From a virus (lineage: Duplodnaviria > Heunggongvirae > Uroviricota > Caudoviricetes): a DNA stretch of 17,345 nucleotides. The position numbers and the translations under genes were made by a program. The stretch lies in IMG/VR virus record IMGVR_UViG_2713897073_000004. The stretch is one strand, 5' to 3'. The notes below the pieces were generated by a model that did not search any database, was not told the origin of the DNA, and saw only the letters and a list, made by a program, of their open reading frames with translations. Positions 1 through 16,412 of the stretch are shown one piece after another; position 1 is the stretch's first letter; each line of letters opens with the position of its first letter.

Positions 1-153
1 ATGAAAAACATTGCAGCTATAAAACGTAATAACCGCAAGATTCACGCTCGTAAGTTCCTGTCTACGCCAGAGGGAAAAGCCTGGCTAGAGCGTAAACAGC
101 GAGAGAACGAAGAAAGAAAACTCCTTAGTGAGTTGAAATGGCTTAAGGATTGA
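1..153 (+). CDS. small hypothetical protein (50 aa), or the last 50 codons of a longer gene cut by the window edge
   Basis: ATG at position 1, open for 50 codons to TGA at 151-153 (MKNIAAIKRNNRKIHARKFLSTPEGKAWLERKQRENEERKLLSELKWLKD); basic and helical-looking; a strong hairpin follows 10 nt later. Absent from the ORF track because it is under 60 aa. Confidence 0.35.
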   Translation: MKNIAAIKRNNRKIHARKFLSTPEGKAWLERKQRENEERKLLSELKWLKD

Positions 154-162
154 ATCACCAGT

Positions 163-206
163 AGGCGCATAACACATCCAGCAATCAAAGATGTGTTTGT
201 GCGCCT
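163..206 (+). terminator. stem-loop after the first ORF; tentative intrinsic terminator
   Basis: AGGCGCATAACACATC (163-178), 11-nt loop, GATGTGTTTGTGCGCCT (190-206): about 16-bp imperfect inverted repeat starting 10 nt after the stop. The T-run (226-231) is 20 nt downstream rather than adjacent, so the terminator call is weak. Confidence 0.3.
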
Positions 207-703
207 GATAGTGAAATTATTAAAGTTTTTTAGTTAATGTAGCCATTGCATGAACGATGATCGCTAGTGAATCGATTTTATCTCGAGGGGTAAAATAGAT
301 GAGGTATATGATGGTAACAATTACAGCTAAAGTAATTGTGGTTCTGCAGGTTTTTAAAATGGATAAGATAAAGCGCATAGATACCCCCTATTGATTTAAC
401 AACAACAAGGTATCATTTATTTTTTATTGCATGCAATGTGCAAATTTTCACATATAATAGCTTACTATTCACTTTGCATGGTGTCAACAAGATGATGTGT
501 TGTTTTGTTTGATTTGTTCAAGATAATATTTCATTTTCTCATCTATATAACTTGTGTTTTAGATAATTTCACTAATTGTAAAAGTTACGTATTGCTTAAT
601 AGCTGCCTTTTTATCTGAAATCGGCGCAAACGTGATCAATGTTTAACGCGAAGATCAGCGGCGTCAGGTCCATGCAGCGACAATTCTCAAATATCAGGAG
701 GCA

Positions 704-1255
704 TTACGCTTCCTGCTCTTTCTTGATACGTTGCACCGTCTGTGTGCTGACACTGAAATCTTTTGCTACGCTCCGAATTGATCCACCATTCGCGAGAGCG
801 GCAGCAATTCCTGCTCGATCAATTGCTTTTCCATTACCACGTTTTGCTATACGCCCAGCGGCCTTAGCTGCCGCGATCCCTTCACGTTGACGCTCAAGCA
901 TCATTTCACGCTCCATTTGTGCCACTGCTGCAAGCACTGTGAGCATCATATTCCCTGCGGGAGAGTTCTTCCCTGTCTTAAAGTCTTCTTTATGGAAATG
1001 CACAGACACGCCGCGCTCTGTTAATTGCTCAACCGTTGCCAGAAGGTCGGCTGTATTACGACAAAGGCGATCAATACTATGGACGTGTAACACGTCACCC
1101 TCCCGCACATAGTTCATCATTGCCTCAAACTGTGGGCGCTGAGTGTTCTTGCCTGACGCTTTATCTTCAAAGACTTTATCAAGAGTTACTCCAGCTAATT
1201 GACGGTCTGTGTTTTGTTGCACAGTCGATACCCTAATGTATCCAATATTAGCCAT
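704..1255 (-). CDS. serine recombinase, resolvase/invertase family
   Basis: 185-codon minus-strand ORF. Probable start is the second ATG (1255, AAGGA about 8 nt upstream), giving MANIGYIRVSTVQQNTDRQ. N-terminal YIRVST motif with the nucleophilic serine, SIDRLCRN, AVAQMEREMMLERQREG core, and a C-terminal HTH (SIRSVAKDFSVSTQTVQRI). An alternative start at 1261 adds two residues. Confidence 0.88.
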   Translation of the reverse strand: MANIGYIRVSTVQQNTDRQLAGVTLDKVFEDKASGKNTQRPQFEAMMNYVREGDVLHVHSIDRLCRNTADLLATVEQLTERGVSVHFHKEDFKTGKNSPAGNMMLTVLAAVAQMEREMMLERQREGIAAAKAAGRIAKRGNGKAIDRAGIAAALANGGSIRSVAKDFSVSTQTVQRIKKEQEA

Positions 1256-1754
1256 TTTCATTTTCCTTCTGTGTTGATTTGTGTGTAGTGATTATTGATC
1301 GTGTTGATTAGGTGTGTAAAGGACTTTTTTCACTACGAAATTCGAAGGTTTTTAGTGTGGTGATTTAGCCTGCTTTATCACTACACGTCTTGCATGAGAA
1401 TCATGTAGTTACGTTTTGGTAAAATTAGCAAGCTATTAAATAGTGTGTTTATTTTGAAAAAATAATTTTTTGTTGCATTAAAGAAAACTTGTTCGACAAA
1501 TAATAGATTGATTTTTAATCAACAATTTCTGATAGTGCTCTGTAAGCCGCATTACATAAGGCTTTGCGAAAGTGATGTAAAAGTGAAGAAAGCTAACATT
1601 GCACTTTTTAAGCTACTTTTCATTGAATTTTTACGTAGAAATTACACAGGGATTAATCATCAATTAATCTTGAATTTAAGCCTGTTTTTTTAATTTTTGA
1701 TAGCAAGAAACACTTTTAGAAGATCATTGCACAGATGTTATGTGATAAATGGAT

Positions 1755-1878
1755 GTAACGATGGGTTACATTCAGCTATCTGAAATACTCTCTGTAAGAA
1801 ATTTGGTAGTAACGATATTACACATCGGTAGTAACGATACGTTACATCGGCAGATGATTGGTTGTAACGAAAGGTTAC
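1755..1878. repeat. cluster of four GTAAC-N5-GTTAC palindromic sites; candidate iterons or recombinase/regulator binding sites
   Basis: GTAACGATGGGTTAC (1755-1769), GTAACGATATTACAC (1809-1823, degenerate right half), GTAACGATACGTTAC (1831-1845, perfect), GTAACGAAAGGTTAC (1864-1878, perfect). Sites 2 and 3 sit inside a tandem 22-23-bp repeat GGTAGTAACGATA..TTACACATCGG. Centre-to-centre spacings are about 54, 22 and 33 bp. Confidence 0.6.
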
Positions 1879-2628
1879 ACAATAAGACTAACATCTATAA
1901 TACTAATAATAAAACTAACTATTAAACTATATAATATAATTCTTTTTATTTTTATAAGAATAATTATAGGGATACCCGTTAGGAAGTCTTCGAATATCCC
2001 TTAATCTATTGGCATTCGCCAGAACCTTGCACAAGTTAGAGTGTTAGTCGTTAGACTGCTTGTCATAACACATAGTTTTTGTTTGTTGATGTTAGTTAGT
2101 AGATCTATGTTCGCTAATACCGCTCACAACGAATATGTAATCTACTATGTGCAATAACCTTGTGTGCTACGCATTAGCGATGTTAGCACATAGACACAGA
2201 CAACAACCAACAACAAACAAAAAAGAATGGTTTTAGTAGTTGAAGGTTAAATAAGATTCTACCGCTTAAATCAAGCCGTAGGCGAGCTAAACGTATATAA
2301 GGTAGGGAAACACCTTAGCGGTAATAGATTAGCTCGTTATAGAGCTTCTGAGGAGCTTTACAGGTATTTTATAAGATGTCTGAAATCATAGTTTATCTAT
2401 CCACCATCTTTCCATCACCTGATAAATCAAAAATAAGCCCCTTAAATAAACCTCTGACGAGATAAACAGCCATTAGATAAGGCAATGTATTGCTTTTATC
2501 AAAACTTCGTTAGAACGCGTTTTAGAGCGTTTTAGACAATAATGAAGAATAGCACTACACAGGAGAGCACGAATTGCTAAGAAAAAATGTAAGTACATGA
2601 AAAAGATCAGATTTTTTATGAAAAGGTA

Positions 2629-2657
2629 TTGACAAACGTCTCTTTCTGTGCAATAAT
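2629..2657 (+). promoter_or_regulatory. sigma70-type promoter for the small-gene operon
   Basis: TTGACA (2629-2634), 17-nt spacer, AATAAT (2652-2657); consensus -35, 5/6 -10, optimal spacing; about 125 nt upstream of the first operon gene. Confidence 0.5.
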
Positions 2658-2781
2658 AGGTATTAGAGGGACAGGAATAGATTCTTATCCTCTAAATAAT
2701 TAAACCAATGCACCGCACTTTGAAGCCCAAGGCTTGCAAGGTGTTTTTTCTTTTAACCAAATAGAATAAGGAGGCTAATTA

Positions 2782-2958
2782 ATGAAATATTTTACTCCAC
2801 AGGATGTAGTAGAAGCCTGGAAACGTGGTGAGATCAACCGCTTTAAAGTAAGGATGTATAGAAACACCGCTCGCCGTTGTGGTTATCCAGAGCGTGAAAA
2901 ATGTTTTGACGATGCACTGAAAATTATTGATGAACTGCGTAAAGCTGAGAAAGAATAA
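2782..2958 (+). CDS. hypothetical small protein (58 aa), first gene of the AT-rich operon
   Basis: ATG 2782 preceded by AAGGAGG (2768-2774, 7-nt spacer); MKYFTPQDVVEAWKRGEINRFKVRMYRNTARRCGYPEREKCFDDALKIIDELRKAEKE, stop TAA 2956-2958. Not in the ORF track (under 60 aa). The minus-strand track ORF 2779-3012 is its antisense shadow. Confidence 0.6.
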   Translation: MKYFTPQDVVEAWKRGEINRFKVRMYRNTARRCGYPEREKCFDDALKIIDELRKAEKE

Positions 2959-2980
2959 TAGACAAGAGAAGGAGAAAACT

Positions 2981-3148
2981 ATGAGCGAAACCAAGAAACC
3001 AATTCCACGCACTTACCTACACGTTGACCCTGAAATTTTCAAGATTTTATTTTCTGAAGCCAAGAAAAGGCAAGTTATGGTCAGTGATTTGATGTTAGAA
3101 ATCATTACTGAAGCAGCAGAGAACATCAAACAAAAAAAGGGTAAGTGA
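2981..3148 (+). CDS. ribbon-helix-helix (CopG/Arc/MetJ-like) DNA-binding protein, 55 aa
   Basis: Start at the internal ATG 2981 of track ORF 2927-3148, with GAAGGAGA 5-6 nt upstream. MSETKKPIPRTYLHVDPEIFKILFSEAKKRQVMVSDLMLEIITEAAENIKQKKGK shows a beta-strand (RTYLHVD), helix A, short turn, helix B pattern typical of RHH proteins. Fold call is from pattern only. Confidence 0.5.
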   Translation: MSETKKPIPRTYLHVDPEIFKILFSEAKKRQVMVSDLMLEIITEAAENIKQKKGK

Positions 3149-3201
3149 TCCTCATTCACTTTAGTAGCGCATTAAGCGTGATTTATAAGGAGATAATTCT
3201 A

Positions 3202-3882
3202 ATGTCTAAAATTAAATTGATTCGTGAAAAACACCAGTATGTTGATAAACAAACAGGAGAAATTAAAGACCGAACTTTGAATATACCGCATTACTTTTGT
3301 GAGATTGAATTCATCTACTCCTCAAATATTGAGGATGGAAGAGCGAAGTTTAGTGCAGAAATGCAAAAATTATATTGCTATGTTTCAGATTGGGAGAAAT
3401 CAGGGGGGATATGTTTTGAAACACAAACGAAGTTAAGTAAGGTTTGTGGCTGTAGCCGTAAGACAGTTAATGAATTGATTGGTCTTATGATTAAAATCGG
3501 TCTTTTAGAAGAGGTCGGAGAACGAATCCCAAAACGTCCATTAAAATTACGTGCGCTACCTCTCACAGATGCACATATTACTCCCCCTAGAGAGTCATCA
3601 CTACCTGATCCTTCTGAGAAAGAAGACGAATCTAATGAAATATTGAATGTTTCCGAAATCATCCTTGAAGAAGAAACACAGGAATCAGCGTTCCCTGAGC
3701 GGCCCGAAATTTTTACTTGGCTTCTTTCCCTTGATAAGAAGAAACCACCGCACGAAGAAACAGAAGATTTTGTAAAACGTGTATTAGATTCAAAGAATAT
3801 CTATCTTGAGAAACAGGCTTTTCACGATCTGATAATATCTCTAAGAGAAAAAAGTGAAATATACGATTCGATACCCTTCTAG
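3202..3882 (+). CDS. winged-helix DNA-binding protein, HTH_36-like (replication-initiator/regulator type) with acidic C-terminal region
   Basis: Start at MSKIKLIRE (ATG 3202, AAGGAG 9 nt upstream); the track ORF starts earlier at 3145 with no RBS. KLYCYVSDWEKSGGICFETQTKLSKVCGCSRKTVNELIGLMIKIGLLEEV matches the HTH_36 pattern seen in phage/plasmid replication-initiation proteins. C-terminal half is E/D/P-rich. Confidence 0.55.
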   Translation: MSKIKLIREKHQYVDKQTGEIKDRTLNIPHYFCEIEFIYSSNIEDGRAKFSAEMQKLYCYVSDWEKSGGICFETQTKLSKVCGCSRKTVNELIGLMIKIGLLEEVGERIPKRPLKLRALPLTDAHITPPRESSLPDPSEKEDESNEILNVSEIILEEETQESAFPERPEIFTWLLSLDKKKPPHEETEDFVKRVLDSKNIYLEKQAFHDLIISLREKSEIYDSIPF

Positions 3883-3894
3883 GAGAATAAATAA

Positions 3895-4164
3895 ATGACT
3901 TATAACATCACTATAGGAAACAAAACTATTGAAATAACTGAAAGCGGATACAACATTTTAAAAGCTATTTTGGAAATAGAGTTTTCACCACCGACAGTGG
4001 TTAGCTTTTGCAGCTTAGGTTGCTACAGCACCCAACATGTGAACAATTGGTTAAGCCATTTTACATCGTTCGGTGTGCTGGATTATGAAGGGATTAACAG
4101 CACTACATTTCGTCTTTTGAAATTAAACAAAGATTTTGAATTGTTTATCACAAACAATCAATAA
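3895..4164 (+). CDS. hypothetical protein (89 aa)
   Basis: ATG 3895 with AGGAGA 8 nt upstream; 13 nt after the preceding stop; same strand and tight spacing as neighbours. Confidence 0.5.
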   Translation: MTYNITIGNKTIEITESGYNILKAILEIEFSPPTVVSFCSLGCYSTQHVNNWLSHFTSFGVLDYEGINSTTFRLLKLNKDFELFITNNQ

Positions 4165-4260
4165 CAACAGATCGGGCAATACATATGGCAAATGCATTTA
4201 TGGCGATATTCATCGTAACTATGGCATTCAGTTTTTATAATCCACATAAAAAGAGGGAAA

Positions 4261-4644
4261 ATGGGAAGAAAGAAAAAGAACAACTTAAAACGTATTGAAA
4301 AAAACAGTAATTTCAATTCAACAAGACAACGTCCACCGACACACACCAATAACGAAATTCCAGGGGAAGAGATAATCTTTATTCTTGAAACAGAATCCCC
4401 TGAATTAAGTGATCAAGAATTAGAAATAATCCAGTCAATGCCAGGCGTTTACTTTCGCCCAAGAACAAGGAAACAAACTATCATTTCTGATGGCACTCTG
4501 AAACGTTGGCAGCTTTTAGGGTTTAGCTCCTATCATCATTTTTTGGGATTTAACGCTTTCAATAATTGTGTAGGTGGTGCATCGGAAGTCGATCTGATGG
4601 CTCATTTAGAAGATACATTAGCTTCTAACAAACGTTCTAACTAA
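4261..4644 (+). CDS. hypothetical protein (127 aa), basic N-terminus
   Basis: ATG 4261 preceded by AAAAAGAGGGAAA; N-terminus MGRKKKNNLKRIEKN is highly basic. Confidence 0.55.
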   Translation: MGRKKKNNLKRIEKNSNFNSTRQRPPTHTNNEIPGEEIIFILETESPELSDQELEIIQSMPGVYFRPRTRKQTIISDGTLKRWQLLGFSSYHHFLGFNAFNNCVGGASEVDLMAHLEDTLASNKRSN

Positions 4645-4702
4645 TAAAAATGATGGGCGTATGTATAAGCGCCCAATGAAAATATTCAATAAAGGAAAAA
4701 TA

Positions 4703-4933
4703 ATGATTAACTATCAACTATTAGAAACAACATTTTTTAAAGAAGCAAAACAACTTGCAGAAGTGTTTATTTCACTGGCTGAACGAGCAAAAGAAGAAAA
4801 TGATTTTGCCTTGCTTGATGATGTGCTGGATGACATTGCAACCTATCGTATACCGCTACAGATTGCACTAAACAAGGCTAAACAGATTCAGCAAGAGATG
4901 GAATCAGCAGATCAAGGAGAGATTGCACAATGA
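4703..4933 (+). CDS. hypothetical helical protein (76 aa)
   Basis: Start taken at internal ATG 4703 (MINYQLLETTFF...), preceded by AAAGGAAAAA; the track ORF begins at 4661 with no RBS. Stop overlaps the next start (ATGA). Confidence 0.5.
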   Translation: MINYQLLETTFFKEAKQLAEVFISLAERAKEENDFALLDDVLDDIATYRIPLQIALNKAKQIQQEMESADQGEIAQ

Positions 4934-5241
4934 CAGACAACATTCTGGAAGTTATGGACACTCTTTCGGATCGGATGATCACCCTACAGACACGTATCAA
5001 TCAAGCCTATTCAGATTTATGCGATTACACGCTCTCTCAATGCGTAATTAGCTTAATGAAGGTGAATGTAAGCCTTGACGATTTTATCTCTCTGGTGAGC
5101 GATTTAGAGCAGCTATCTGAGGACGATGCCAAGATGTGCACTCAAACCATCACAGACACCGCCAGCACGTTAAAGGCTGCAAGTGAAGAGATTCAGCAAT
5201 TAGTAGATGATTTAGCAAAAAGTGCTATTTTCTCTAAATGA
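4930..5241 (+). CDS. hypothetical acidic helical protein (103 aa)
   Basis: ATG 4930 overlaps the upstream stop in ATGA (translational coupling); last gene of the AT-rich operon. Confidence 0.55.
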   Translation: MTDNILEVMDTLSDRMITLQTRINQAYSDLCDYTLSQCVISLMKVNVSLDDFISLVSDLEQLSEDDAKMCTQTITDTASTLKAASEEIQQLVDDLAKSAIFSK

Positions 5242-6205
5242 TAATGAAAATCATTTGCATTTATAATGATTTTGTTATATAATAATTTTAGGGGTAGATA
5301 AAAAGGTTTTGACTGGTGTTAATCCTTTTCCTGTCATAAATCCCTGCATATGGAAGGTGATAGCCTCAAGGGTTGAGTGGCATTAACCTCTAACAAATAT
5401 TACCTTCCATCTCTCAAGAAGTTTTAGAATAATCATAACTCCCTCTTTGATTGTTGATTGTTTCTACGTTGTGTTGATGAATGTTGTTAGGCATTGTGCT
5501 TAATTTTGATAAAAGCGGGTAGGTGTTATCTCCTTGCCCTTCTCGCTCTTATTTTTCATCTGTGCTTATCCTAAAGCTCCTTATTTTGTCCGAAAACATT
5601 AAAGAGCCTTACACTGATAGTTATATTTTATAACTATTTACTAACATCACTAAACTCATTATTTAATGACAGAAGTTAGTAACAGAATAATCTATTAAGT
5701 TGTTGTCAAAAACAATCATCTGCATAGCGTTAGCCGCAAGCAGAGAGAGTTTAACTAAGAATGGAAGTATTGATAAGTATACCAGTTTACAAAAAAGATT
5801 TTTTCTAAATTGCAAATTCTTTCCAAAGCGGTAGATTACTGTGGTGTAGTTAATCCCTATTAAAATTTAATCTGTGAGTAGATTGGAATAGTGATTCCTT
5901 AAAATCTGACTGGTGCATCCACACCATGAAAGATAGCGGTTTAGCCCACCGCAACCAGAATATCAGGTCTTAGTGATTCCAGTGGGGCAACTCCTAAGAG
6001 CCTTTCTTCTAAGATCTGATATTCACTCTTTAAGCATATCATCAAGTATATTTAAAAAGTGTATTTGCTGATATGTTTAATCCTCTTATAGTTTAACTTA
6101 TCAATTATGTAATTGCCCGCACGTTAAAGCCCCTTTGCTGGTCAGAATTAACCTCTTACGGCATTGGGGCTTTTTATTTGTCTGGCACTAACAGGAACGT
6201 TATTT

Positions 6206-6403
6206 ATGAAACAAGAAATGATTATCAGCAAAGACGGGGAAACGATGATTGTTAGTGATGAAAACCTCATTAAGGTTGCCGCACTGTTGGGAGTTACTCC
6301 TGAAAGTCTTCATTCTACCACTGCTCAATTATTTAAATCGGCTGATGCGGTTAGTCTTGCTGATGCCCTTAAATCTAAAATTAAACAACTGAAAGGAAAA
6401 TAA
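6206..6403 (+). CDS. hypothetical protein (65 aa), first gene of cargo operon
   Basis: Start taken at ATG 6206 (MKQEMIISKDGE...), with AGGAA about 9 nt upstream; the track start at 6164 lies inside a GC hairpin/T-run and lacks an RBS. Confidence 0.5.
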   Translation: MKQEMIISKDGETMIVSDENLIKVAALLGVTPESLHSTTAQLFKSADAVSLADALKSKIKQLKGK

Positions 6404-6407
6404 TCTT

Positions 6408-6791
6408 ATGGCTAACCCATATGGAAAATTAAAAGCAGTGAATGCGGATAATTCCCGTTCACGCTGTAAGGTAGTAGCTTACGCTGCTGATCCAGTGCTG
6501 CAAGATCGCCTCGTCAAACTGGCTTCACCTCTCACTGACGATCTTATTGTCGGGGCTTTGCTGAAAGCCGATGGCACCAAAGCAACAACCGCATCTGATA
6601 TTGCTCACGTAGTAGTTGAACCGGCTTATGAAGGACAGGAAAGCGTAGTGGTTGCACATCCTACTTTCGTTATTCTGGCTGAAGATGGGATTGAATTTAA
6701 CAGCATGGAAAAGGCAAGTGTTATTGCAAAACTGCAATCTCTCGGCTTTGTAATTGCTGGTTATGAAGAACTTGCGATCCCTACGACTTAA
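6408..6791 (+). CDS. hypothetical protein (127 aa)
   Basis: ATG 6408 with AAAGGAAAA upstream, 4 nt after the previous stop; codon usage is more balanced than in the AT-rich operon. Confidence 0.65.
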   Translation: MANPYGKLKAVNADNSRSRCKVVAYAADPVLQDRLVKLASPLTDDLIVGALLKADGTKATTASDIAHVVVEPAYEGQESVVVAHPTFVILAEDGIEFNSMEKASVIAKLQSLGFVIAGYEELAIPTT

Positions 6792-6805
6792 CAAGGAAAA
6801 TAATA

Positions 6806-7837
6806 ATGAATGATTTATCAACATATTTTGGCGTTAATACTGCGGTAGTAACTCCATTTGCTTATGAGAATGCACTTAATACCCTGATTACTAATCTCGA
6901 TCTGTTCGATGTGCAATATCATACAGAAAACAGCATTCTTCTTACCGACCTGATTGATCAGTTTGTGCAGGTAGCTGGGGAAACCTCGCCTTACACTCAA
7001 AGCAGCTGGAACGCCTCTAAACGTCAGGAATGGTCAAACAAACTTTTCCAGATGAAGCACGTCGGCAGTATTAACGCTGTTACTTCTCGTGACCTGGAAC
7101 AATACAGCCGCCAATATCCAAACCGTTCTGATGCTATGCTGGTAGCGGTTAATGATTTCTCTGAGGCTCATTACCGTTCACACGCAAACCGTGTTGAAGT
7201 GGATCTGATTACCGCGCTGCTGGGACTGAAAGTTGAATCTGAATATGCCGGACAAGGTGATCTCGACTTCCTCGACGGTCAGGCTAAAACCACGGTACCC
7301 GCTATCGACTTTGCATCGACTAGTGTTAACCCGTTCCTTGCTATTCGTAAAGCGGTGCGCTTACAGAGTGAAAAGCTGGGGTCTGGTCTTGCTGCAAAGC
7401 GAACTGGTGTAATTATCTTTGCTGCTGGCGCTGCTGCTGATGGTTTGTCATCTAACCCGCTGATCAGTGACATGGTGAAATATGCAGGTGATGCGAGTGC
7501 TACGGCCCTGTTTACCCGTATGGTTGATTCTAACCCAGCCTATGACTCTTTCCAGATTGGTGGGATCACTGTTATTGATGTGTCAATGTTTCCTGAGATT
7601 GTTGCTCACATCGGAGAGAACGGTTTCGCAATTGTTCCGGTAATGGATAAGTCGGCACAGTGTTACCAGCTTCATAGCGGCGTTGGTGTGCGTCATGCTG
7701 AGTTAGGTCAAGATGCCGTGTTACATCACCAATATCTAATCAAGGATGAATTCCAATTCCCATCTGTGGTTACTGAGACATCTTATCTGCCAGTAAACAA
7801 CATTCCGCAAGCTATCATCTTCGGATCTGCTGCGTAA
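6806..7837 (+). CDS. hypothetical protein (343 aa), no recognisable catalytic motif
   Basis: ATG 6806 with CAAGGAAAA upstream; long clean ORF 14 nt after the previous stop. No Walker, HUH or nuclease motif found by eye. Confidence 0.75.
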   Translation: MNDLSTYFGVNTAVVTPFAYENALNTLITNLDLFDVQYHTENSILLTDLIDQFVQVAGETSPYTQSSWNASKRQEWSNKLFQMKHVGSINAVTSRDLEQYSRQYPNRSDAMLVAVNDFSEAHYRSHANRVEVDLITALLGLKVESEYAGQGDLDFLDGQAKTTVPAIDFASTSVNPFLAIRKAVRLQSEKLGSGLAAKRTGVIIFAAGAAADGLSSNPLISDMVKYAGDASATALFTRMVDSNPAYDSFQIGGITVIDVSMFPEIVAHIGENGFAIVPVMDKSAQCYQLHSGVGVRHAELGQDAVLHHQYLIKDEFQFPSVVTETSYLPVNNIPQAIIFGSAA

Positions 7838-7977
7838 TAAAGCATTAATAGACGATTCCCCATAGGGGCAATAAGGTAAGGGATAATCATATAAGTAAAA
7901 TATGCGCTGTCTCTTGCCCTTATTTTTTTTCTACTGTCTACAGACCCAAATAAAAATATATATGTGAGAGAAAACCA

Positions 7978-8190
7978 ATGAACGCAGAAAATTCACAGGC
8001 ATTAATTCTTAAATCTGTAAAAGAACTGGCAGCTATTAGCGAGGAATCAGTTATAAACACATCGGCGCTTTGCCGCCTTTTAGAAATTGATGCAAATAAT
8101 GTGCGGCAGCGTGTGTTTCAGACTGGATGCAGCACTTTTGAAGCAATTGCATACTACTGTTCTAAAAACAATAACAAACAACAATTATAA
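7978..8190 (+). CDS. small putative HTH protein (70 aa)
   Basis: ATG 7978; segment NTSALCRLLEIDANNVRQRV looks like a helix-turn-helix; sits directly upstream of the 613-aa gene. Confidence 0.5.
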   Translation: MNAENSQALILKSVKELAAISEESVINTSALCRLLEIDANNVRQRVFQTGCSTFEAIAYYCSKNNNKQQL

Positions 8191-8208
8191 TGCAGGGAAA
8201 CTATTAGA

Positions 8209-10050
8209 ATGCTTGAAATTAATGCCGCACGTATCTCGAACGTTATAACATTTACGACCGACTCCAAAAGCTTACAGAAAGCTAAGAATGAAGTAGAAAA
8301 ACTTCGTAAACAAATGGCGGCGGTGAAAGATATAGAATTGCGTGTTAAGACACATAAACAATCAACCGCTAAAGCAAAAAAAGACGTAGACGATATTGCT
8401 AAAAAGCAAGCACAGGCAGATAAAGCCAATGCTAAAGCACAATTAGCCGCTCAACGTGTAGTTGCAAGAGAACAAAAAGCCCTGGCAGCACGGAAAGAGA
8501 AGGCTGAATTAAAGCTTTTAGACGTTGGAGCAAGCATTAGCGCATTGCACCGTCTTTCTGTAGCGGAACAATATAAAGCTATTGCACAGGCTAGAGAAAT
8601 TGCCCTCCAATATGAAAGAGGCGCTATTAGTCTGGCACGTATGAATAGCCAAATGAAACGCCTACAACAGCAACAACGTAAGATTAATGGCAATCGTAAC
8701 GCTCACGCTAAAGCCTATGCACCTGTTAAGGGTAGCGGGAGTATTGGCGGCGGTGCTGCGGCTGTTATGCTGGGCGGCTTAGGCGCTGGCGCTGCATATA
8801 TGGCTATGAGCAAAGCCTCTGAATTTGTTACTAACAGCTTTGCGAATGCTGAAACGCTGGGTGAATTGTATAGCCGTGCCAAGCTGGGCGGTGTAGACGT
8901 TAACCAGATGAACAATATTGAGCAATGGGCGTATAAAAACGGCGTTGATTCAATGATGGGCGAACAAGGTAAACGTAAGTATCTCGATCAGATGAAAGAT
9001 GTGCGTGAACGTGCAACCAAATCTTATGATGAAGCTGAATATGTAGTTGATAAGAAAACTGGTAAAGGAGAATGGAAGGGCGGCGATAGCGGCATCAATA
9101 CTTTAATGAATGAAGGATTCCTAACTAAAAAGGATCTAAAAGACTTTGCTGATAATCCGGCTGGTCTGGTTAGTAAAGCAGTTCAGGGAATGGTAGCTAA
9201 AGGCTATTCAGATGCACAAATCGGTAGTCGTCTGGAAGATCTGGCTGATGATTTGATGCTCACCTCTAAATACTGGACACGCTCCGCTAAAGAAGTGGAA
9301 CAATCAGCACGAGAACAACGAGAATCAGGGCGCTGGGTAACACAGGCACAACAGGAAAGCGTTATTAAATTCCGTGAACTGAATAATGCACTTAGTGGGC
9401 TTTCTGACTCACAAGGGATCGCCTTTGTTGATGGCTTTATGAAATCTCTTGATCCGAAAGTGATTGAAGAGTTTAAAAAGAGCATGGTTGCAATGCTGCC
9501 AATGTTTACCAAATTAGGCGAGGCTGTAGGTGGTCTGCTTAATGCGATCATGAAAACTATCAACTGGCTGATGAAAAACGACGAGAAGACGGCAGCTATT
9601 CAGAAGAATTTAGGTGATGCACCGCCACTATCTAACGAAGGAATGAAGCAGAATCTTTCTAATCTCACTCCTGATCAATATAAAGGCGCTGGCACCGGAA
9701 CAATTAAGCCAGATAACAGCAATTCCCTGGTTAACACTATTAAAAGCTGGTTTATGCCAGAAGAAACGGTAGGTGGGGCACAGGCTGTAAATCAATACAG
9801 TCTCGAAGGACAAAACATTGCAAATCTGAAACAGAGTGCAGCACAACAAGCTTTCAAGGCTCCTTCTTACACCTTTGCACCTGTTATTAACTTCAATCCA
9901 GAATTACAAGTAAATGCAGAAGTGCCGCTAACTATCGAATCAGACACCGGACGATTGAGCGAATTTATCGACTTCAAATCAAAGGCATCTTCCGCTGAGT
10001 TTAGCAAGCTATTAACGCTTGGTGTTATGTCAGGCGGGTCAACCTATTAA
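8209..10050 (+). CDS. large hypothetical protein (613 aa): N-terminal K/A/Q-rich coiled coil, glycine-zipper hydrophobic segment, large C-terminal domain
   Basis: ATG 8209 with AGGGAAA upstream. Residues about 20-165 are K/A/Q/E-rich heptad-like sequence; residues about 175-201 are GSGSIGGGAAAVMLGGLGAGAAYMAMS (nt about 8731-8811), a Gly/Ala-rich membrane-type segment; the remaining roughly 400 aa are mixed. Composition recalls tape-measure or pilot/ejection proteins, but no homology is established. Confidence 0.8.
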   Translation: MLEINAARISNVITFTTDSKSLQKAKNEVEKLRKQMAAVKDIELRVKTHKQSTAKAKKDVDDIAKKQAQADKANAKAQLAAQRVVAREQKALAARKEKAELKLLDVGASISALHRLSVAEQYKAIAQAREIALQYERGAISLARMNSQMKRLQQQQRKINGNRNAHAKAYAPVKGSGSIGGGAAAVMLGGLGAGAAYMAMSKASEFVTNSFANAETLGELYSRAKLGGVDVNQMNNIEQWAYKNGVDSMMGEQGKRKYLDQMKDVRERATKSYDEAEYVVDKKTGKGEWKGGDSGINTLMNEGFLTKKDLKDFADNPAGLVSKAVQGMVAKGYSDAQIGSRLEDLADDLMLTSKYWTRSAKEVEQSAREQRESGRWVTQAQQESVIKFRELNNALSGLSDSQGIAFVDGFMKSLDPKVIEEFKKSMVAMLPMFTKLGEAVGGLLNAIMKTINWLMKNDEKTAAIQKNLGDAPPLSNEGMKQNLSNLTPDQYKGAGTGTIKPDNSNSLVNTIKSWFMPEETVGGAQAVNQYSLEGQNIANLKQSAAQQAFKAPSYTFAPVINFNPELQVNAEVPLTIESDTGRLSEFIDFKSKASSAEFSKLLTLGVMSGGSTY

Positions 10051-10097
10051 TCATCACTGTGGGGCTGTTTAGCCCCCTTAAATAAGGATTACAAATT

Positions 10098-10775
10098 ATG
10101 GCAATGGGTCCGTTAACCATTGGTCGCCCGACTGAGGCGAAAATCAACAGCACAAGCAACGATAGCAACGGTAGAACAACTAAAGGGGGTAACGGCTTTG
10201 CGATCATTACCTCTAATCTCGGCAGTGGTGCAAATGCTGCTTACAATGACTACCAGGCATTATCATTTGATAGCGTGGAATCGACGAGAGTTAGCAGAAA
10301 TGCAGACGTTACAAGCTATGCTGTCGAATCAGGATCAGAAGTTAGTGATCATGTTCAAATACGGAATAACAAGTTCACATTACAAGGGCGTATCTCTGAA
10401 ACCGTATTGAAGCTCAATCCTGATATGATTAAGAATGCTGGAATTAACGGCAATCGACGTATGCTTATGCTTGAATACCTAAATCAGTTGATGGACAGTC
10501 GCCAACCTTTCCTACTTGTCACTGAGTTAAAAAATTATGACAACGTTGTGTTAGTTGGCATGTCTTACGCAGAAGAAGCAAGCGAAAGCCTATTGTTTAC
10601 TCTTGATTTTGAGCAAATCCGTCTTGTCTCTAAAGCAACTACAAGCGCAATTGCGGTAAAAACAGCACCAAATAAATCTGTAGGAGGCCAGGTTAAAATG
10701 CAGGTAAATACAACAGAACAGAAAAATCAAAAAAGCCCAGGGCAAGACGTTGTAACGCCAGTATTTAAACAATAG
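10098..10775 (+). CDS. hypothetical protein (225 aa), S/T/N/G-rich N-terminus
   Basis: ATG 10098 with AAGGA upstream; last gene of the cargo operon; the overlapping alternate-frame track ORF 10120-10410 is rejected. Confidence 0.7.
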   Translation: MAMGPLTIGRPTEAKINSTSNDSNGRTTKGGNGFAIITSNLGSGANAAYNDYQALSFDSVESTRVSRNADVTSYAVESGSEVSDHVQIRNNKFTLQGRISETVLKLNPDMIKNAGINGNRRMLMLEYLNQLMDSRQPFLLVTELKNYDNVVLVGMSYAEEASESLLFTLDFEQIRLVSKATTSAIAVKTAPNKSVGGQVKMQVNTTEQKNQKSPGQDVVTPVFKQ

Positions 10776-10816
10776 CCTTAAACGCCTATGAAACGCTCTG
10801 TAACGAGATAATCATA

Positions 10817-10848
10817 AAAGAGGCATCAGCCTATATTGAAGCCTCTTT
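10817..10848. terminator. hairpin between convergent genes; candidate bidirectional terminator
   Basis: AAAGAGGC (10817-10824), 16-nt loop, GCCTCTTT (10841-10848), between the cargo operon end (10775) and the integrase stop (10856); A/T-rich on both flanks. The loop is large, so stability is uncertain. Confidence 0.35.
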
Positions 10849-10855
10849 ATTACGT

Positions 10856-12133
10856 CTATAGCGTTGTTTTACGCCTTAAATTTGATTTTTTATTGATTGA
10901 TAAGCCTTTCTCTATTTCAGGATAGCGTAAAAGCTCAATATATTTTTTAAGCTCTACTGGAGAAGCTGCATTTTTGCTATATGTGCGGAATGTTTCTGTA
11001 TTGCCGCGTGTATGGCCCAGGAGAAGGGCGATCCTGTCTTCTGGAATTTGATTTCGATCAAGAAGCTGTGCTACTCCGTGTCTCAGAGAATGAAACACTT
11101 TCCTTTCTGTTCCCTTTTCCCCTAAAGCCTTTCGTTTAGCTCTTGTAAATCGTTGTGTATGCCACGTAGAGCGTTTACCGTCAGCACGCTCTGTAATGCT
11201 GGCGTGATAGAACAAAAAGCCATTGTGAGGCTTTTCACGAAGAGATAACACCAATGGAGTGATAAGGCTATGCACAGGCACAAGACGTGCCGCAGCTTTC
11301 GTTTTTCCCTGTGTGATTTCAAAACACAGCACACCTTCGATCTCTTTCACATCGTCTATTGTGAGACTTGCTATCTCATTGATCCGCATCCCTGTATATA
11401 AACCGATAAGACATAAAGCCGTCATTTCTTTGTTTTCTGCTGAATTACCGGAAAATACTTGCAACACCTGCAATAGCTCTTTGTTAGAAAATGCCTCGTA
11501 GCTCTCTCTACTTTGTGCCACATCAAGCCTATGCCCTCGCCAGGGGGAGAGCGCCCTTTCTGGCGCATCGTGGTAACGTGATGAAGCTAATTCCCATAGC
11601 TGGGCCATTGGGCTGATATAATTTGCAATTGATTGTTGTGAAAGAGTTTTTTGCATGTGTTCAATCCAGCCTGTAACAGTGGTGCGGCTTACATCTTGCA
11701 ATGCAATATCAGGCTTTTTACGGTAGGAGAGAAACATCTCTACCGCTTTTCTTGCCTTAGCTAAAGTGGCTGGCTTCTTCTTCGTGCTGTTAATTGTCAG
11801 GTAGATTTCAAGAATTTTAAGCAATGACGGACACGAAGACGCTGTATCTTGCATTCTGGTAGCTGTTTTGGCGTATTTAGCCTTACTGCGTAACAGTTCC
11901 AGCGTGTTTTCTATTGTGCTGTTTACAGGGGCAACACTCTCCCGTAAGCAATGGTATTCATCTGCAATCTGATCACGCTTTCTACGTGCAACACGAAGAT
12001 TACTTGTGTGCAGACTTCTGACAAACGTCCTTTTTCCTTCAAAAAAGGGCTGCATATACACAGGCAGCGTGATCCTTAAATAGTAGTTACCGTAAGAATC
12101 ACAGATTAAGTATTGGTTAGGCTTGTATCTCAT
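10856..12133 (-). CDS. tyrosine site-specific recombinase/integrase with DUF6538-like N-terminal domain
   Basis: Catalytic signature of tyrosine recombinases: TGMRINEIASL (Arg), VFHSLRHGVAQLL (HxxR), LLGHTRGNTETFRTYS (His...Tyr). N-terminus YLICDSYGNYYLRITLP...GKRTFVRSLHTSN fits the YYFRRR-type arm domain. Start placed at the internal ATG 12133 (GGAG 5 nt upstream); the track start at 12190 has no RBS. Confidence 0.85.
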   Translation of the reverse strand: MRYKPNQYLICDSYGNYYLRITLPVYMQPFFEGKRTFVRSLHTSNLRVARRKRDQIADEYHCLRESVAPVNSTIENTLELLRSKAKYAKTATRMQDTASSCPSLLKILEIYLTINSTKKKPATLAKARKAVEMFLSYRKKPDIALQDVSRTTVTGWIEHMQKTLSQQSIANYISPMAQLWELASSRYHDAPERALSPWRGHRLDVAQSRESYEAFSNKELLQVLQVFSGNSAENKEMTALCLIGLYTGMRINEIASLTIDDVKEIEGVLCFEITQGKTKAAARLVPVHSLITPLVLSLREKPHNGFLFYHASITERADGKRSTWHTQRFTRAKRKALGEKGTERKVFHSLRHGVAQLLDRNQIPEDRIALLLGHTRGNTETFRTYSKNAASPVELKKYIELLRYPEIEKGLSINKKSNLRRKTTL

Positions 12134-12310
12134 AAAATCTCCGGCTAAAGTGTCGGAGCGTTTGTAATGTGAAAATTGATTGTGACGCATAGAAAATGAT
12201 TATTTTTCTATAAGATTCAATCAATTAGTAATGGTCGTAGTGATGGCATTAACACGAGATTAATCGAGTGTTTTACTCCTATTATCGGCACCATTCAAAC
12301 ATCTCCCCAA

Positions 12311-12458: not shown

Positions 12459-13673
12459 GTGAAACTCAATGCCCGTCAAATAGACACAGCCAAGCCAAAA
12501 GAGAAGGCTTACAAGCTGGCCGATGGTGGCGGTTTGTATCTCTTGGTAAAACCTAATGGAGGTAAATACTGGCGACTTAAATATCGTGTAGCAGGTAAAG
12601 AGAAGCTATTGGCACTAGGTGTGTATCCTGAGGTTACTCTAGCCGATGCTCGGGCAAAACGTGAAGATGCGAAAAGAGGTATCGCTGGTGGTATCGATCC
12701 GATGGAAGCGAAACGAGAGGAAAAGATTGCCCGGGAAACGCAGTTAAACAACACCTTCAAAGATATTGCCCTTGAGTGGCACAGCAGCAAATTAAAAAAA
12801 TGGTCTGCTGGTTATGCTTCAGACATCCTCGAAGCCTTCAACAAAGATGTGTTCCCTTACATTGGCAAAAAACCAATCGCCGAAATCAAACCACTTGAAC
12901 TTCTGAATGTGCTGCGGCGCATCGAGGGGCGCGGTGCGACAGAAAAAGCCAAAAAAGTGAGGCAGCGGTGCGGGGAAGTTTTCCGCTATGCAATAGTCAC
13001 TGGTCGCGCAGAGTATAACCCTGCACCAGACCTTACTAGCGCGATGCAAGGCCATGAATCTAATCATTACCCTTTCCTTACGACCAAAGAATTACCTGAT
13101 TTTTTCAAGGCATTATCCAGTTACTCAGGAAGCGCATTGGTTGTTATGGCGGCTCGCCTACTGATTATCACCGGCTTGCGAACTGGCGAACTACGTGGCG
13201 CATTATGGGATGAAATTGATTTCAACAAGGCTATATGGGAGATACCCGCTTCACGTATGAAAATGCGGCGGCCTCATATTGTGCCATTGTCTGAGCAGGC
13301 TCTTTCGCTTATTGGGAAGATTAGAGAAATAACAGGCAATTACCCTCTTATGTTTCCCGGGCGCAATGATCCAAGGAAAACAATGAGTGAGGCCAGCATA
13401 AACCAAGTGTTTAAGCGCATTGGCTACGCTGGACGTGTAACTGGTCATGGGTTCCGACACACTATGAGCACGATTTTGCATGAGCAGGGCTATAACACCG
13501 CGTGGATAGAAACGCAGCTCGCTCACGTTGATAAGAACTCAATTCGTGGCACATACAACCATGCGCAATATCTGGATGGACGGCGGGAGATGCTTCAATG
13601 GTATGCCGACTATATGGATTCTCTCGAGCATGGCGGAAATGTGGTGCATATGGTGTTTGAAAAACACGCATGA
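12459..13673 (+). CDS. int: P4-family tyrosine integrase
   Basis: GTG start 12459 with GGAGG 9 nt upstream. N-terminal arm-binding domain typical of P4-type integrases (AKPKEKAYKLADGGGLYLLVKPNGGKYWRLKYR), catalytic Arg (ITGLRTGELR), HxxR (GHGFRHTMST), and C-terminal LAHVDKNSIRGTYNHAQYLDGRREMLQWYADYMD with the catalytic Tyr. Confidence 0.92.
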   Translation: MKLNARQIDTAKPKEKAYKLADGGGLYLLVKPNGGKYWRLKYRVAGKEKLLALGVYPEVTLADARAKREDAKRGIAGGIDPMEAKREEKIARETQLNNTFKDIALEWHSSKLKKWSAGYASDILEAFNKDVFPYIGKKPIAEIKPLELLNVLRRIEGRGATEKAKKVRQRCGEVFRYAIVTGRAEYNPAPDLTSAMQGHESNHYPFLTTKELPDFFKALSSYSGSALVVMAARLLIITGLRTGELRGALWDEIDFNKAIWEIPASRMKMRRPHIVPLSEQALSLIGKIREITGNYPLMFPGRNDPRKTMSEASINQVFKRIGYAGRVTGHGFRHTMSTILHEQGYNTAWIETQLAHVDKNSIRGTYNHAQYLDGRREMLQWYADYMDSLEHGGNVVHMVFEKHA

Positions 13674-13980
13674 AACAACTGGACAAGTATACAGAGGTTT
13701 ACTAAAGTATAGGGGAGTAGATTGATAAAAACTCACAGAGGATTGCTATTTAACAGTTAGCCTTGGAGAAGGGCAATCGCTCTTTTATAAACGAAGGTGT
13801 ATTGAGCCTTCTACGCTGCTGAAAAGCGGAATGTTCTTTAACAGGCTTTGGCGCTGACAAAGCGCAATTGTTCTTTAAAACTACTGGATGTCACGCCTAA
13901 TAGCGTGATCCTGCCGAAATGCAGGGTAGCTCTACCCTTGTGGAGCAAACAAACCAAAACAATCTGACTATCTTTTATAA

Positions 13981-14013
13981 AAGACCGCAATATGTTTTTC
14001 ATATTGTGGTCTT
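13981..14013. promoter_or_regulatory. inverted repeat upstream of alpA; candidate operator
   Basis: AAGACCGCAATATG (13981-13994), TTTTT, CATATTGTGGTCTT (14000-14013): 14-bp arms, 13/14 complementary, about 90 bp upstream of the alpA start. A second palindrome GGGTAG-CT-CTACCC lies at 13924-13937. Confidence 0.4.
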
Positions 14014-14100
14014 TGGCGTATTCGACATTTGACGCAAATAAAACTCTCGCCATTCGTTGCAGGAGGGGGTTATTGCGTCATTAGTACAGGATATTAATAA

Positions 14101-14304
14101 ATGGCTAATTACAATTCATTAATTCGTCTCTCTGAAGTTCAAAGGCGAACTGGTTATAGCAAAGCATGGATTTATCGTCTTATTAGTCAGGGGAGGTTCC
14201 CTAAACAGGTAAAAATTGGAAGTCGGGCAATTGCTTTTGTTGAGTCTGAAATAGATGAATGGATTGAGAAGTGTATATTAGAATCTAGAGACGAGGTGGC
14301 CTGA
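14101..14304 (+). CDS. alpA: AlpA/Vis-family transcriptional regulator (excisionase-like HTH)
   Basis: 67 aa; LIRLSEVQRRTGYSKAWIYRLISQGRFPKQVKIGSRAIAFVESEIDEWI is the classic AlpA signature; positioned just downstream of a P4-type int, as in P4-like islands. Confidence 0.85.
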   Translation: MANYNSLIRLSEVQRRTGYSKAWIYRLISQGRFPKQVKIGSRAIAFVESEIDEWIEKCILESRDEVA

Positions 14305-14735
14305 TGGAAAAGAAAAACCGCCCATTACAGGCGGCTAATTCAGATATTCGCGTATCTGATGTTACGCCCCTGACAAAATCCCTTCAAGCACCAAAGCGCA
14401 CGCCGAAAAAGCATCGTGCCCGAGTCTATATGCTGCGTACTGGTATAGAGGGATGGACAGAAAATGACATTCTTCGCTACTGCCGTCTGTCTTCTGGTCG
14501 TAACTATGCAACAGAGTTAGAACGCCAGCTTGGAATCACTCTGGAGCGTATCGACGAAAAGAATCCTGATGGTATCGGAACACACCTTCGCTACCGTTTC
14601 TCCTGCCGTGGTGATGTTCTGAAAGTGATCACTCATGTTAACCATCTTGCGAACATAAATGATCACAACGGACTTTCTCAGCAGGAAATTGCCGACATTC
14701 TGAAACTCTACCCGGACGCGTTTAACGCCGCCTAA
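14304..14735 (+). CDS. hypothetical protein (143 aa)
   Basis: ATG 14304 overlaps the alpA stop (TGATG), indicating coupling; basic N-terminus (PKRTPKKHRAR); no motif recognised. Confidence 0.65.
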   Translation: MEKKNRPLQAANSDIRVSDVTPLTKSLQAPKRTPKKHRARVYMLRTGIEGWTENDILRYCRLSSGRNYATELERQLGITLERIDEKNPDGIGTHLRYRFSCRGDVLKVITHVNHLANINDHNGLSQQEIADILKLYPDAFNAA

Positions 14736-14747
14736 CGGAGACTAAAA

Positions 14748-15581
14748 ATGAACATCGAAAAAAGCAGATTAATTTCTGAGGCCGCCCCTCATCTGAACGC
14801 CTCTCTGGGCACAATTAACGGTAATGAATTTGCCGCAATTGTCCCGGTTATTTCTGGTCATATAGGCGGGCGTGAAACCAATATTGTTAGCGCAAAAGCG
14901 TTACACAAAGCGTTGGGCGTGGGAAAAGACTTCTCTACATGGATCACTGATCGCATCTCTGAATATGACTTCACCATTGGGCACGATTACTCAGTCCATA
15001 AAACAATTTCCCCAAATTTGGGGAAAAGCCCGAATGACGCGGCTTACAGCAAGATTAAGCAGTCTGGCAGACCCGGCAAAGACTATCTGTTAAGTGTCGG
15101 AATGGCGAAAGAACTGGCAATGATCGAACGCAATGATCAGGGTCGCGCTATCCGCCGTTATTTCATCCAGTGCGAGAAAGAATTACAGCGTAGCGTGCCT
15201 GAAATCGCCGCCCGCTATCGTCGCCAGCTAAAAGCCCGTATCAGTGCCGCAAACAACTTCAAGCCAATGTGCGATGCGCTGAATATGGCCCGTGCCGAGA
15301 TGGGGAAAACGACGCAGCAACACCACTACACAAACGAGAGCAATATGATTTCTCGTATCGTTCTTGGTGGGCTAACTGCTAAGCAGTGGGCGCGGATAAA
15401 TGGCTATTCTGGCGAACCTCGCGACCATATGAACGCAGAACAGCTTGAGCACCTCTCATATCTCGAAAGCACCAATATCACGTTAATTGATATGGGCATG
15501 GAATATGAGCAGCGCAAAGGAGAACTCACCCGCCTGTCGCAACGCTGGCTCGCCAAGCGTCTGGAGGCGGTCCATGTTTAA
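14748..15581 (+). CDS. putative antirepressor, AntA/AntB- or KilAC-like (277 aa)
   Basis: ATG 14748 with ACGGAG upstream. Segments FSTWITDRISEYDFTIGHDY and GKDYLLSVGMAKELAMIERNDQGRAIRRYFIQCE resemble phage antirepressor domains. Family assignment is from remembered motifs, not a search. Confidence 0.6.
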   Translation: MNIEKSRLISEAAPHLNASLGTINGNEFAAIVPVISGHIGGRETNIVSAKALHKALGVGKDFSTWITDRISEYDFTIGHDYSVHKTISPNLGKSPNDAAYSKIKQSGRPGKDYLLSVGMAKELAMIERNDQGRAIRRYFIQCEKELQRSVPEIAARYRRQLKARISAANNFKPMCDALNMARAEMGKTTQQHHYTNESNMISRIVLGGLTAKQWARINGYSGEPRDHMNAEQLEHLSYLESTNITLIDMGMEYEQRKGELTRLSQRWLAKRLEAVHV

Positions 15582-15756
15582 GCCGACAGGAACACCACAA
15601 CCTCAAAAACGCTACAAAGATGCCCACGGAGCACTCGTTACTGTCGAAAGCGTGTCTCACAACCGAGTGACGTTTTATCGCGACGGGTATCAATCGCCAT
15701 GCGTACAACCGCTGGCACGTTTCATGAAGGAGTTCGCGGAGGTTAACAAATGCTAA
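15574..15756 (+). CDS. hypothetical small protein (60 aa)
   Basis: Start taken at internal ATG 15574 (MFKPTGTPQPQKRYKDAHGALVTVESV...), which overlaps the AntA-like stop by 8 nt. The track ORF 15487-15756 extends upstream inside the preceding gene and is rejected as an N-terminal extension. Confidence 0.5.
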   Translation: MFKPTGTPQPQKRYKDAHGALVTVESVSHNRVTFYRDGYQSPCVQPLARFMKEFAEVNKC

Positions 15757-16382: not shown

Positions 16383-16393
16383 CGTAACCTGCT
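16276..16393 (+). ncRNA. candidate structured leader or antisense-type regulatory RNA (C4/CI-like immunity RNA or attenuator)
   Basis: GGCTTC-TTCG-GAAGC hairpin (16293-16306); TGGTGG (16276-16281) can pair with CCACCA (16352-16357), while CTACCACC (16349-16356) can alternatively pair with GGTGGTAG (16375-16382); AGCCGGTTACGC (16323-16334) is 11/12 complementary to GCGTAACCTGCT (16382-16393), which lies 8 nt upstream of the GGAGG of the next gene. Confidence 0.35.
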
Positions 16394-16412
16394 ATCTGAA
16401 GGAGGCTGCCAC

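Follow-up and report, generated by a model that had tools for sequence, protein, structure and literature searches.

The lytic myovirus ICP1 carries the nuclease Odn, in which the RepA_N domain of its satellite PLE is fused to a T5orf172 domain and which cuts the PLE origin at the iterons, and PLE escapes Odn by swapping its RepA-ori (origin) module (PMC8263062). A family of satellites in Escherichia coli and relatives was predicted together with Odn-like phage nucleases by Barth, Dunham and Seed in 2023 (PMC10448857); in the portion of that article used here the support is bioinformatic only, and 224 such putative satellites are described as att-flanked elements of ~13 kb with a modular RepA and with genes for an integrase and for decoration, capsid, tape-measure and baseplate proteins, along with matching chromosomal RepA genes. 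We analyzed a stretch of 17,345 nucleotides (IMG/VR virus record IMGVR_UViG_2713897073_000004; hereafter the window), with emphasis on its operon of seven small genes, g1 to g7, at 2782-5241. The window consists of E. coli DNA from the thrW/proA site and, as far as the same portion of the article goes, is a member of the type of these satellites that matches the phage Inny, with nothing different in kind. Since the family had been predicted in 2023, our gain is one of detail, not of discovery. We consider it highly probable that the seven genes form the early operon, for replication and control, of a ~13-kb integrative satellite at thrW, exploiting lytic phi92/phAPEC8-like phages (Stephanstirmvirinae).

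The island in the window agrees with the satellites of Barth et al., as described in that portion, in its size (~13 kb), in its att repeats at a tRNA gene and terminal tyrosine integrase, and in the presence of decoration, capsid, tape-measure and baseplate genes with the remaining phage gene set absent. It also agrees in a RepA whose RepA_N domain is exchangeable and in the DNA for the RepA N-terminal domain, which is like that for the first domain of a phage RepA_N-T5orf172 protein: positions 2969-3593 (625 bp, spanning g2 and codons 1-130 of g3) were 95% identical in nucleotide sequence to Inny. An earlier note on this DNA, made from the letters alone, had seen in the operon a plasmid- or island-type replication and maintenance module; replication and island stand, whereas the plasmid-like part gives way to a satellite with capsid, tape-measure and Dit genes.

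With PLE and the ICP1 nuclease Odn (PMC7145576, PMC8263062), the locus has in common a satellite of a lytic myovirus, an initiator of RepA_N fold, semi-palindromic iterons in non-coding DNA, exchangeable RepA-ori modules and a phage nuclease composed of a RepA DNA-binding domain and T5orf172. It differs in its recombinases, a tyrosine integrase plus a resolvase of 185 aa where PLE has a large serine recombinase, in encoding capsid, tape-measure and Dit proteins of its own, and in that the phage nucleases here have two DNA-binding domains. No sequence homology with PLE was detected, and protein searches gave no Vibrio-named protein, though the PLE genes were not compared directly. Unlike the initiators of staphylococcal RepA_N plasmids (pSK41, pTZ2162; PDB 4PTA, 4PT7, 5KBJ), g3 is without a Pfam RepA_N match and resides in an integrative satellite of a Gram-negative host, not in a plasmid. 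The phage-inducible chromosomal islands that form capsids (cf-PICIs) are likewise satellites with their own major capsid and decoration genes; in contrast to them, scans of the island open reading frames (ORFs; Pfam, PHROG) gave no terminase, portal, protease, head-tail adaptor, AlpA or Pri-Rep, and tape-measure and Dit genes are present instead, a point also made in the portion of PMC10448857 used here.

The putative g3 initiator and its candidate iterons

The operon and the region upstream of it contain the following features.

1755-1878, no strand: four semi-palindromic iterons, GTAACG-N4-GTTAC, starting at 1755, 1809 (degenerate), 1831 and 1864
1879-1970, no strand: AT-rich stretch, candidate unwinding region, read from the sequence and kept downstream of every iteron cassette
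2629-2657, + strand: sigma-70 promoter with extended -10, TTGACA-17-TGcAATAAT, 11/12 matches plus TG
2663-2695, + strand: 5' hairpin of the leader, from folding
2715-2744, U-tract to 2754, + strand: intrinsic-terminator hairpin of the leader with U-tract, from folding and conservation
2782-2958, + strand: g1, 58 aa, basic; core gene, 64% identical in type-2 islands (a diverged sister lineage)
2981-3148, + strand: g2, 55 aa, ribbon-helix-helix (RHH)-like by the strand-helix-helix pattern read from its sequence
3202-3882, + strand: g3, 226 aa, predicted RepA-type initiator; winged-helix N-terminal domain, acidic linker and helical C-terminal domain ending in ...YDSIPF
3895-4164, + strand: g4, 89 aa, weakly conserved core gene
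4261-4644, + strand: g5, 127 aa, basic N-terminus; core gene, 30% identical to its type-2 homologue (E 1e-16)
4703-4933, + strand: g6, 76 aa, acidic, helical, accessory; alternative ATG at 4661
4930-5241, + strand: g7, 103 aa, acidic, helical, accessory; noise-level coiled-coil matches only

When all seven proteins were scanned against Pfam, PHROGs, NCBIfam and PADLOC, g3 alone gave a signal. PHROG matches of its N-terminal domain were replication initiators throughout (best phrog_270, E 5e-6), and in its alignment across related islands the N-terminal domain (~aa 1-125) varied, whereas the hinge (LTDAHITPP) and, beyond an acidic stretch, the C-terminal domain were conserved. The AlphaFold2 (AF2) model of g3 (mean pLDDT 67.7; N-terminal domain ~70-90) consisted of a winged helix, a disordered linker (131-165) and a helical C-terminal domain. 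In the fold comparison its best match was 4RO3 (N-terminal domain of RepA, the initiator of the satellite PLE of Vibrio cholerae; PMC7145576), and RepA_N entries were among the top Foldseek matches, with weak E-values; the N-terminal domain has the RepA_N/DnaD-NTD fold. Sequence searches of the PDB with g3 and with a g3 profile gave nothing significant, and the PLE RepA is also without BLASTP similarity to staphylococcal RepA_N proteins (PMC7145576). The name 'LexA family transcriptional regulator', given to g3 variants in RefSeq, has no support in the family scans.

The C-terminal domain of g3 gave six clusters only in a HMMER search against 1.84 billion representatives, indicating an orphan domain that offers no functional clue. 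RepA C-terminal domains of these islands fall into at least three types without recognisable similarity (types 1 and 2 compared by blastp, E 8.4; type 3 by eye), joined at the same hinge and all ending in an acidic [IL]PF-COOH tip (...IYDSIPF, ...YEDFDIPF and ...EEDDFDIPF), and P225 and F226 of g3 are nearly invariant in the alignment. The E. coli SSB terminus DDDIPF is the tip that binds partner proteins (PMC5872125). Judging from this likeness, the [IL]PF tip of the initiator could recruit SSB-client proteins (DnaG, PriA, Pol III chi) or their phage equivalents. A scan of the Inny proteins for an SSB-like IPF tail gave none that was convincing.

The motif GTAACG-N4-GTTAC had six strand-matches against 0.13 expected by chance, all of them within 1755-1878, with start spacings of 54, 22 and 33 nt (~11-bp phasing). 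We compared this repeat cassette between the window and 13 further island loci (14 in total), in which the flanks of the cassette are conserved and the cassette itself is replaced. It tracked the allele of the g3 N-terminal domain in 14/14 loci, four alleles being paired with four cassettes:

Allele A: GTAACG...GTTAC palindromes, 3 loci
Allele B: GGTAGGTCACTGTGAGCTAGG, 1 locus
Allele C: CCCCACAGAAnnCTGTTA, 7 loci
Allele D: AGGAAATGAGTTCC, 3 loci

This association persisted across recombinant backgrounds. An identity profile from the resolvase to g6 showed two swapped blocks, 1734-1874 and ~3176-3543, the latter beginning at ~2920 in allele-D islands and so including g2, while the 1.3 kb between them was mostly 80-100% identical save for an indel at 2148. 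From the resolvase start codon to ~1640, islands with different iterons were 90-100% identical. The earlier note had grouped the palindromes and the resolvase with a replication module; the palindromes go with g3 and not with the resolvase, because the repeats swap together with the g3 N-terminal domain while the resolvase side stays constant, and the palindromes at 1755-1878 were accordingly ruled out as res sites.

Cognate semi-palindromic iterons, as expected of RepA_N initiators, are thus present at the sequence level, and together with the adjoining AT-rich stretch they have the layout of an iteron origin. We propose that g3 would act as a RepA-type initiator whose N-terminal winged helix binds the four iterons at 1755-1878 beside the AT-rich stretch, this being the putative origin, and whose acidic linker and C-terminal domain, with the SSB-like D-x-I-P-F tip, would recruit replication proteins. 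The portion of PMC10448857 used here contains neither the position of iterons, nor an assignment of the origin, nor the covariation of iterons with the RepA allele. A different explanation would make g3 a transcription regulator and the repeats, which lie in the non-coding DNA between the resolvase gene and the operon, operator or enhancer sites for one or the other, in a purely regulatory module. We regard this as unlikely.

Phage copies of g2 and of the g3 N-terminal domain

Megablast against phage records gave matches to the lytic 147-kb phages Inny and Muut (Justusliebigvirus, Stephanstirmvirinae). Both carry a copy of g2 just upstream of a nuclease gene, whose product consists of two HTH_36 domains and a C-terminal T5orf172/MUG113 domain (GIY-YIG-type; phrog_681 endonuclease, E 4e-18). 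In the BLASTP comparison the first domain of the nuclease matched island alleles at 85-98%, and it differed between phages in the allele that it resembles:

Inny: allele A, that of the window, 87% over 140 aa
Muut: allele E, present in a sister island lineage, 88-99% (99% with some chromosomal proteins)
Mt1B1_P17, BI-EHEC and metagenomic ~150-kb contigs: allele C, 85-98%

The second domain was 88-90% identical to allele D in all these phages and contigs. The legend of Figure 8 in PMC10448857 describes the second domain as without detectable homology to the repA genes of cognate satellites, and a satellite cognate for it (allele D, 88-90%) does not appear in the portion of the article used here.

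Helper phages would thus counter the satellite with nucleases carrying the same DNA-binding domains and predicted to cut its origin, Inny having the allele of the window, and such cutting would account for the joint swapping of the g3 N-terminal domain with the iterons. With up to 3 mismatches allowed, the entire Inny genome had no copy of any of the four iteron types, and a comparison of k-mers common to the island non-coding regions and Inny gave no regulatory candidates above controls. Matches to GGAAAT..TTCC in Inny were rejected as iterons, being unrelated intergenic hairpins. The hairpin GGCGGGAAATGGTTTCCCGCC recurs between genes of the Inny small-gene region (127797, 130682, 131563 and 133871) and is unrelated to the satellite iterons. 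In two metagenomic phage contigs (L023, L024), the nuclease locus lies a few genes from a gene matching Pfam CapR, a family named after a PLE protein; this is possibly another trace of phage-satellite exchange.

The g2 protein was 90-94% identical (91-95% in an alignment) to proteins of Inny, Muut and metagenomic relatives. Two types of g2, 41-47% identical to each other, were present in both islands and phages irrespective of the RepA allele; at the g2 position of allele-D islands lies a third ORF, of 42 codons (raw translation, not called as a gene). The ribosome-binding region of g2, AGGAGAAAACTATG (window 2967-2983), occurs five times in the Inny genome, which suggests either that the segment with g2 and the DNA-binding domain moved from phage to satellite or that it was shaped by phage-type translation signals. 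More tentatively, three features may belong together: g3 would mimic the host SSB tail, the nucleases would be bispecific with one domain per replicon type (first domain A, C or E, second domain D), and the g2 gene carried by the phages would add regulation as a second layer to this arms race. We hold this combination to be possible but less likely than not.

The locus would be an E. coli counterpart of the PLE-ICP1 pair, in which a satellite and an origin-directed phage nuclease drive mutual diversification. Both E. coli and these coliphages are convenient to work with, and a mapped candidate origin, defined initiator alleles and a predicted target of the nuclease would open the arms race to direct tests. 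The locus also bears on phage therapy, because Stephanstirmvirinae are candidates for therapeutic use and 588/5426 complete E. coli genomes had a match, in most cases a partial one, to the operon region (coverage of at least 80% in 30 genomes).

Promoter, leader RNA and the other operon proteins

The seven ORFs of the operon are all on the + strand, begin with ATG and have a purine-rich Shine-Dalgarno sequence 5-10 nt upstream, and the same seven genes are annotated by RefSeq in a 99.7%-identical E. coli chromosomal locus. The earlier note had described densely packed genes with strong Shine-Dalgarno sequences and overlapping stop and start codons; a Shine-Dalgarno sequence is present at every gene, whereas the overlap is confined to g6/g7 (ATGA), the intergenic distances from g1 to g7 being 22, 53, 12, 96, 58 and −4 nt. 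The GC content of the operon (36.8%) was lower than the 42.9% of the second operon, the 47.6% of the right-hand block and the 55-60% of flanking core genes, which bears out an AT-rich module of seven small co-oriented genes that is foreign to its surroundings. Since the GC content of Inny, the presumed helper, is 37.4% and about that of the operon, its AT-richness is explained more simply by helper-like composition than by the H-NS silencing that had been suggested.

A strong promoter had been placed at the head of the operon, and the near-consensus site at 2629-2657, upstream of the operon coordinates, agrees with this. It was the top-scoring of all sites scanned in 1200-6500, and its -35 hexamer was unchanged across 13 related loci; promoter-like sites as a class were not enriched (13 found against 18.8 expected). 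Between this promoter and g1 lies a 118-nt leader, missing from the earlier note, with a 5' hairpin followed by a 13-bp terminator hairpin and a U-tract. The terminator stem was identical in 8 diverse loci, in which the loops were variable, and two loci had lost one A together with its partner U. Transcription from 2629-2657 would have to read through the terminator at 2715-2754 to reach the genes. Rfam gave no match in the leader or elsewhere in the island, whereas C4 and isrK were found in the neighbouring P4-like element.

The earlier note had named two DNA-binding products. The winged helix of g3 with its acidic tail was confirmed, whereas the RHH assignment of g2 found no significant profile support: there was no Pfam match, the best hit of a PDB profile search was an antitoxin (E 0.79), and the positional equivalent of g2 in allele-D islands gave a FitA-like RHH match that was not significant (E 0.089). 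From its strand-helix-helix pattern, g2 is likely the repressor of the operon, a role that we assign with low confidence. The portion of PMC10448857 used here mentions neither this small gene common to phage and satellite, nor the leader terminator, nor the SSB-like [IL]PF tip.

The remaining products (g1 and g4-g7), which the earlier note had called unassignable, were without a family match in Pfam, PHROGs, NCBIfam and PADLOC. Homologues of g1, g4 and g5 in the sister lineage mark these as core genes: g4 was 22% identical to a 92-aa type-2 island protein at the same position (E 3e-6), with sub-threshold matches only in family scans, and g5 had 56 relatives, of which the named ones were all from E. 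coli or Enterobacteriaceae and none had a functional name. The AF2 model of g5 was poor (pLDDT 58) and unusable for a structure search. No homologue of g6 or g7 was found in type-2 islands, and g6 exists as two unrelated alleles, seen as a swapped block at 4710-4950 in the identity profile; g6 and g7 would be exchangeable accessories, perhaps interfering with the helper. RefSeq gives g7 homologues the names 'transporter' and 'ABC transporter ATPase', which the family scans do not support.

The island around the operon

The island (~1-12294) is att-flanked. Its order is resolvase gene, seven-gene operon, second operon and integrase gene, with non-coding DNA of 1.5 kb before the seven-gene operon and of 0.96 kb after it.

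704-1261, − strand: small serine recombinase of the resolvase family, 185 aa (Pfam Resolvase, E 1e-38), divergent from the operon
6206-10775, + strand: second operon, encoding proteins of 65 aa, 127 aa (decoration-like), 343 aa (major capsid), 70 aa, 613 aa (tape measure) and 225 aa (Dit/baseplate)
10856-12190, − strand: tyrosine integrase (DUF6538 and Phage_integrase, Pfam), 425 aa from the RefSeq start
12275-12294, no strand: attR, right end of the satellite, 20-bp repeat ACTCCTATTATCGGCACCAT, an exact copy of the tRNA-Thr (thrW) 3' end in a related locus (L002)

In the second operon, the tape measure (phrog_16051, E 2.9e-32) and the Dit protein (Pfam Dit_like, E 1.8e-27) were 30% (E 4.5e-24) and 48% (E 1.5e-55) identical to two adjacent genes of Inny in the same order. 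The 343-aa protein had a weak match to major head proteins (phrog_29, E 2.6e-4); its positional counterpart in type-2 islands, of 342 aa, matches Pfam Phage_cap_E, the two proteins being 18.6% identical (E 0.18). The pair of 127-aa and 343-aa proteins mirrors the decoration/major-head pair of Inny, which together with the tape-measure/Dit pair lies at Inny 53462-63069. The capsid protein had no relative in a search for related loci in genome contigs and no tblastn match in phages. No island ORF scanned against Pfam and PHROG matched a terminase, portal or protease, and no sheath or tube gene is present; the structural set (decoration/head and tape measure/Dit) is a partial one.

These phage-like structural genes, together with the frequent variants without g4 and g5 and the insertion sequence (IS) insertions that occur in islands, would also fit a decaying prophage remnant in which the operon is a functionless leftover of the early region. 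This is very improbable in our judgement. The related phages are lytic and ~147 kb long, and no integrase is annotated in the Inny genome (whole genome compared), which argues against the island being their prophage remnant. Moreover, the 12-13 kb architecture recurs at several att sites (tRNA-Thr, tRNA-Gly and others) with different integrases and in a diverged second lineage, the seven ORFs are intact here, and a nucleotide identity of 95% with Inny points to recent exchange. Another reading, in which the operon serves plasmid-type maintenance (by partition or toxin-antitoxin) or anti-phage defence, the latter left open by the earlier note, has in its favour the small acidic or basic proteins, the RHH-like g2, the mobile island and the fact that satellites often protect their host, but it hardly deserves credence, as no ParA/ParB, toxin or defence family was found above noise in Pfam, NCBIfam or PADLOC and only two plasmid records matched, one of them chromosome-sized (4.9 Mb).

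Several observations weigh against our interpretation of the operon as that of a replicating satellite. Support for the satellite family is bioinformatic, both here and in the literature found (PMC10448857 in the portion used), with replication, induction and transfer being predicted. No match of g3 to Pfam RepA_N (PF06970) was obtained at E-values up to 1, and its match to HTH_36, the label chosen in the earlier note, exists but at 22.1 bits (E 1.3e-4) falls below the Pfam cut-off of 25. The 14 loci with matching alleles and cassettes are not independent lineages. In the covariation test the terminator stem had no compensatory substitutions, so its support is conservation with one paired deletion, not covariation. 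Five of the seven operon proteins (g1 and g4-g7) are without assignable function. Finally, many islands have lost g4 and g5 through a deletion that also fuses g3, indicating that part of the satellite family is decaying. In these common variants (L008, L010, L011 and L012; g3 at 7936-8496) the operon has four genes, and the g3 C-terminal domain is fused to a foreign g6-like tail, the [IL]PF tip being gone; they are probably decayed, replication-dead copies.

Minor features were observed elsewhere in the window. The resolvase was 62% identical in type-2 islands. Just 5' of its gene, at 1262-1400, are an inverted pair (gtgtagtgat at ~1283 and atcactacac at ~1378) and two copies of GTGTTGATT; as read from the sequence, these repeats are better res-site candidates than the palindromes at 1755-1878. 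A 22-nt inverted repeat, 86% complementary (2076-2097 and 2202-2223), brackets a stretch (2076-2223) within which all other islands are longer by ~200 bases that abound in short repeats (gtgcaataacc, gcgctgtgcgc), and this could be a packaging or regulatory site. The 0.96 kb between the operons (5242-6205) has promoter-like sites (5238-5283), a block that varies (~5774-5848) and an inverted repeat of 16 nt (5958-5973 and 6009-6024); no motif in common with Inny was found there. At the left end (1-378) are small ORFs at 1-153 (+) and 220-378 (−), annotated as hypothetical proteins in RefSeq; the cargo at this end differs in other islands, one of which (L003) has a YecR lipoprotein. Beyond the island, at 12459-17345, a P4-like satellite lies in tandem at a duplicated thrW att site, with an integrase, AlpA, an AntA-type protein and Ash as well as two RNAs above the Rfam gathering scores, isrK (16131-16208) and the C4 antisense RNA (16271-16359).

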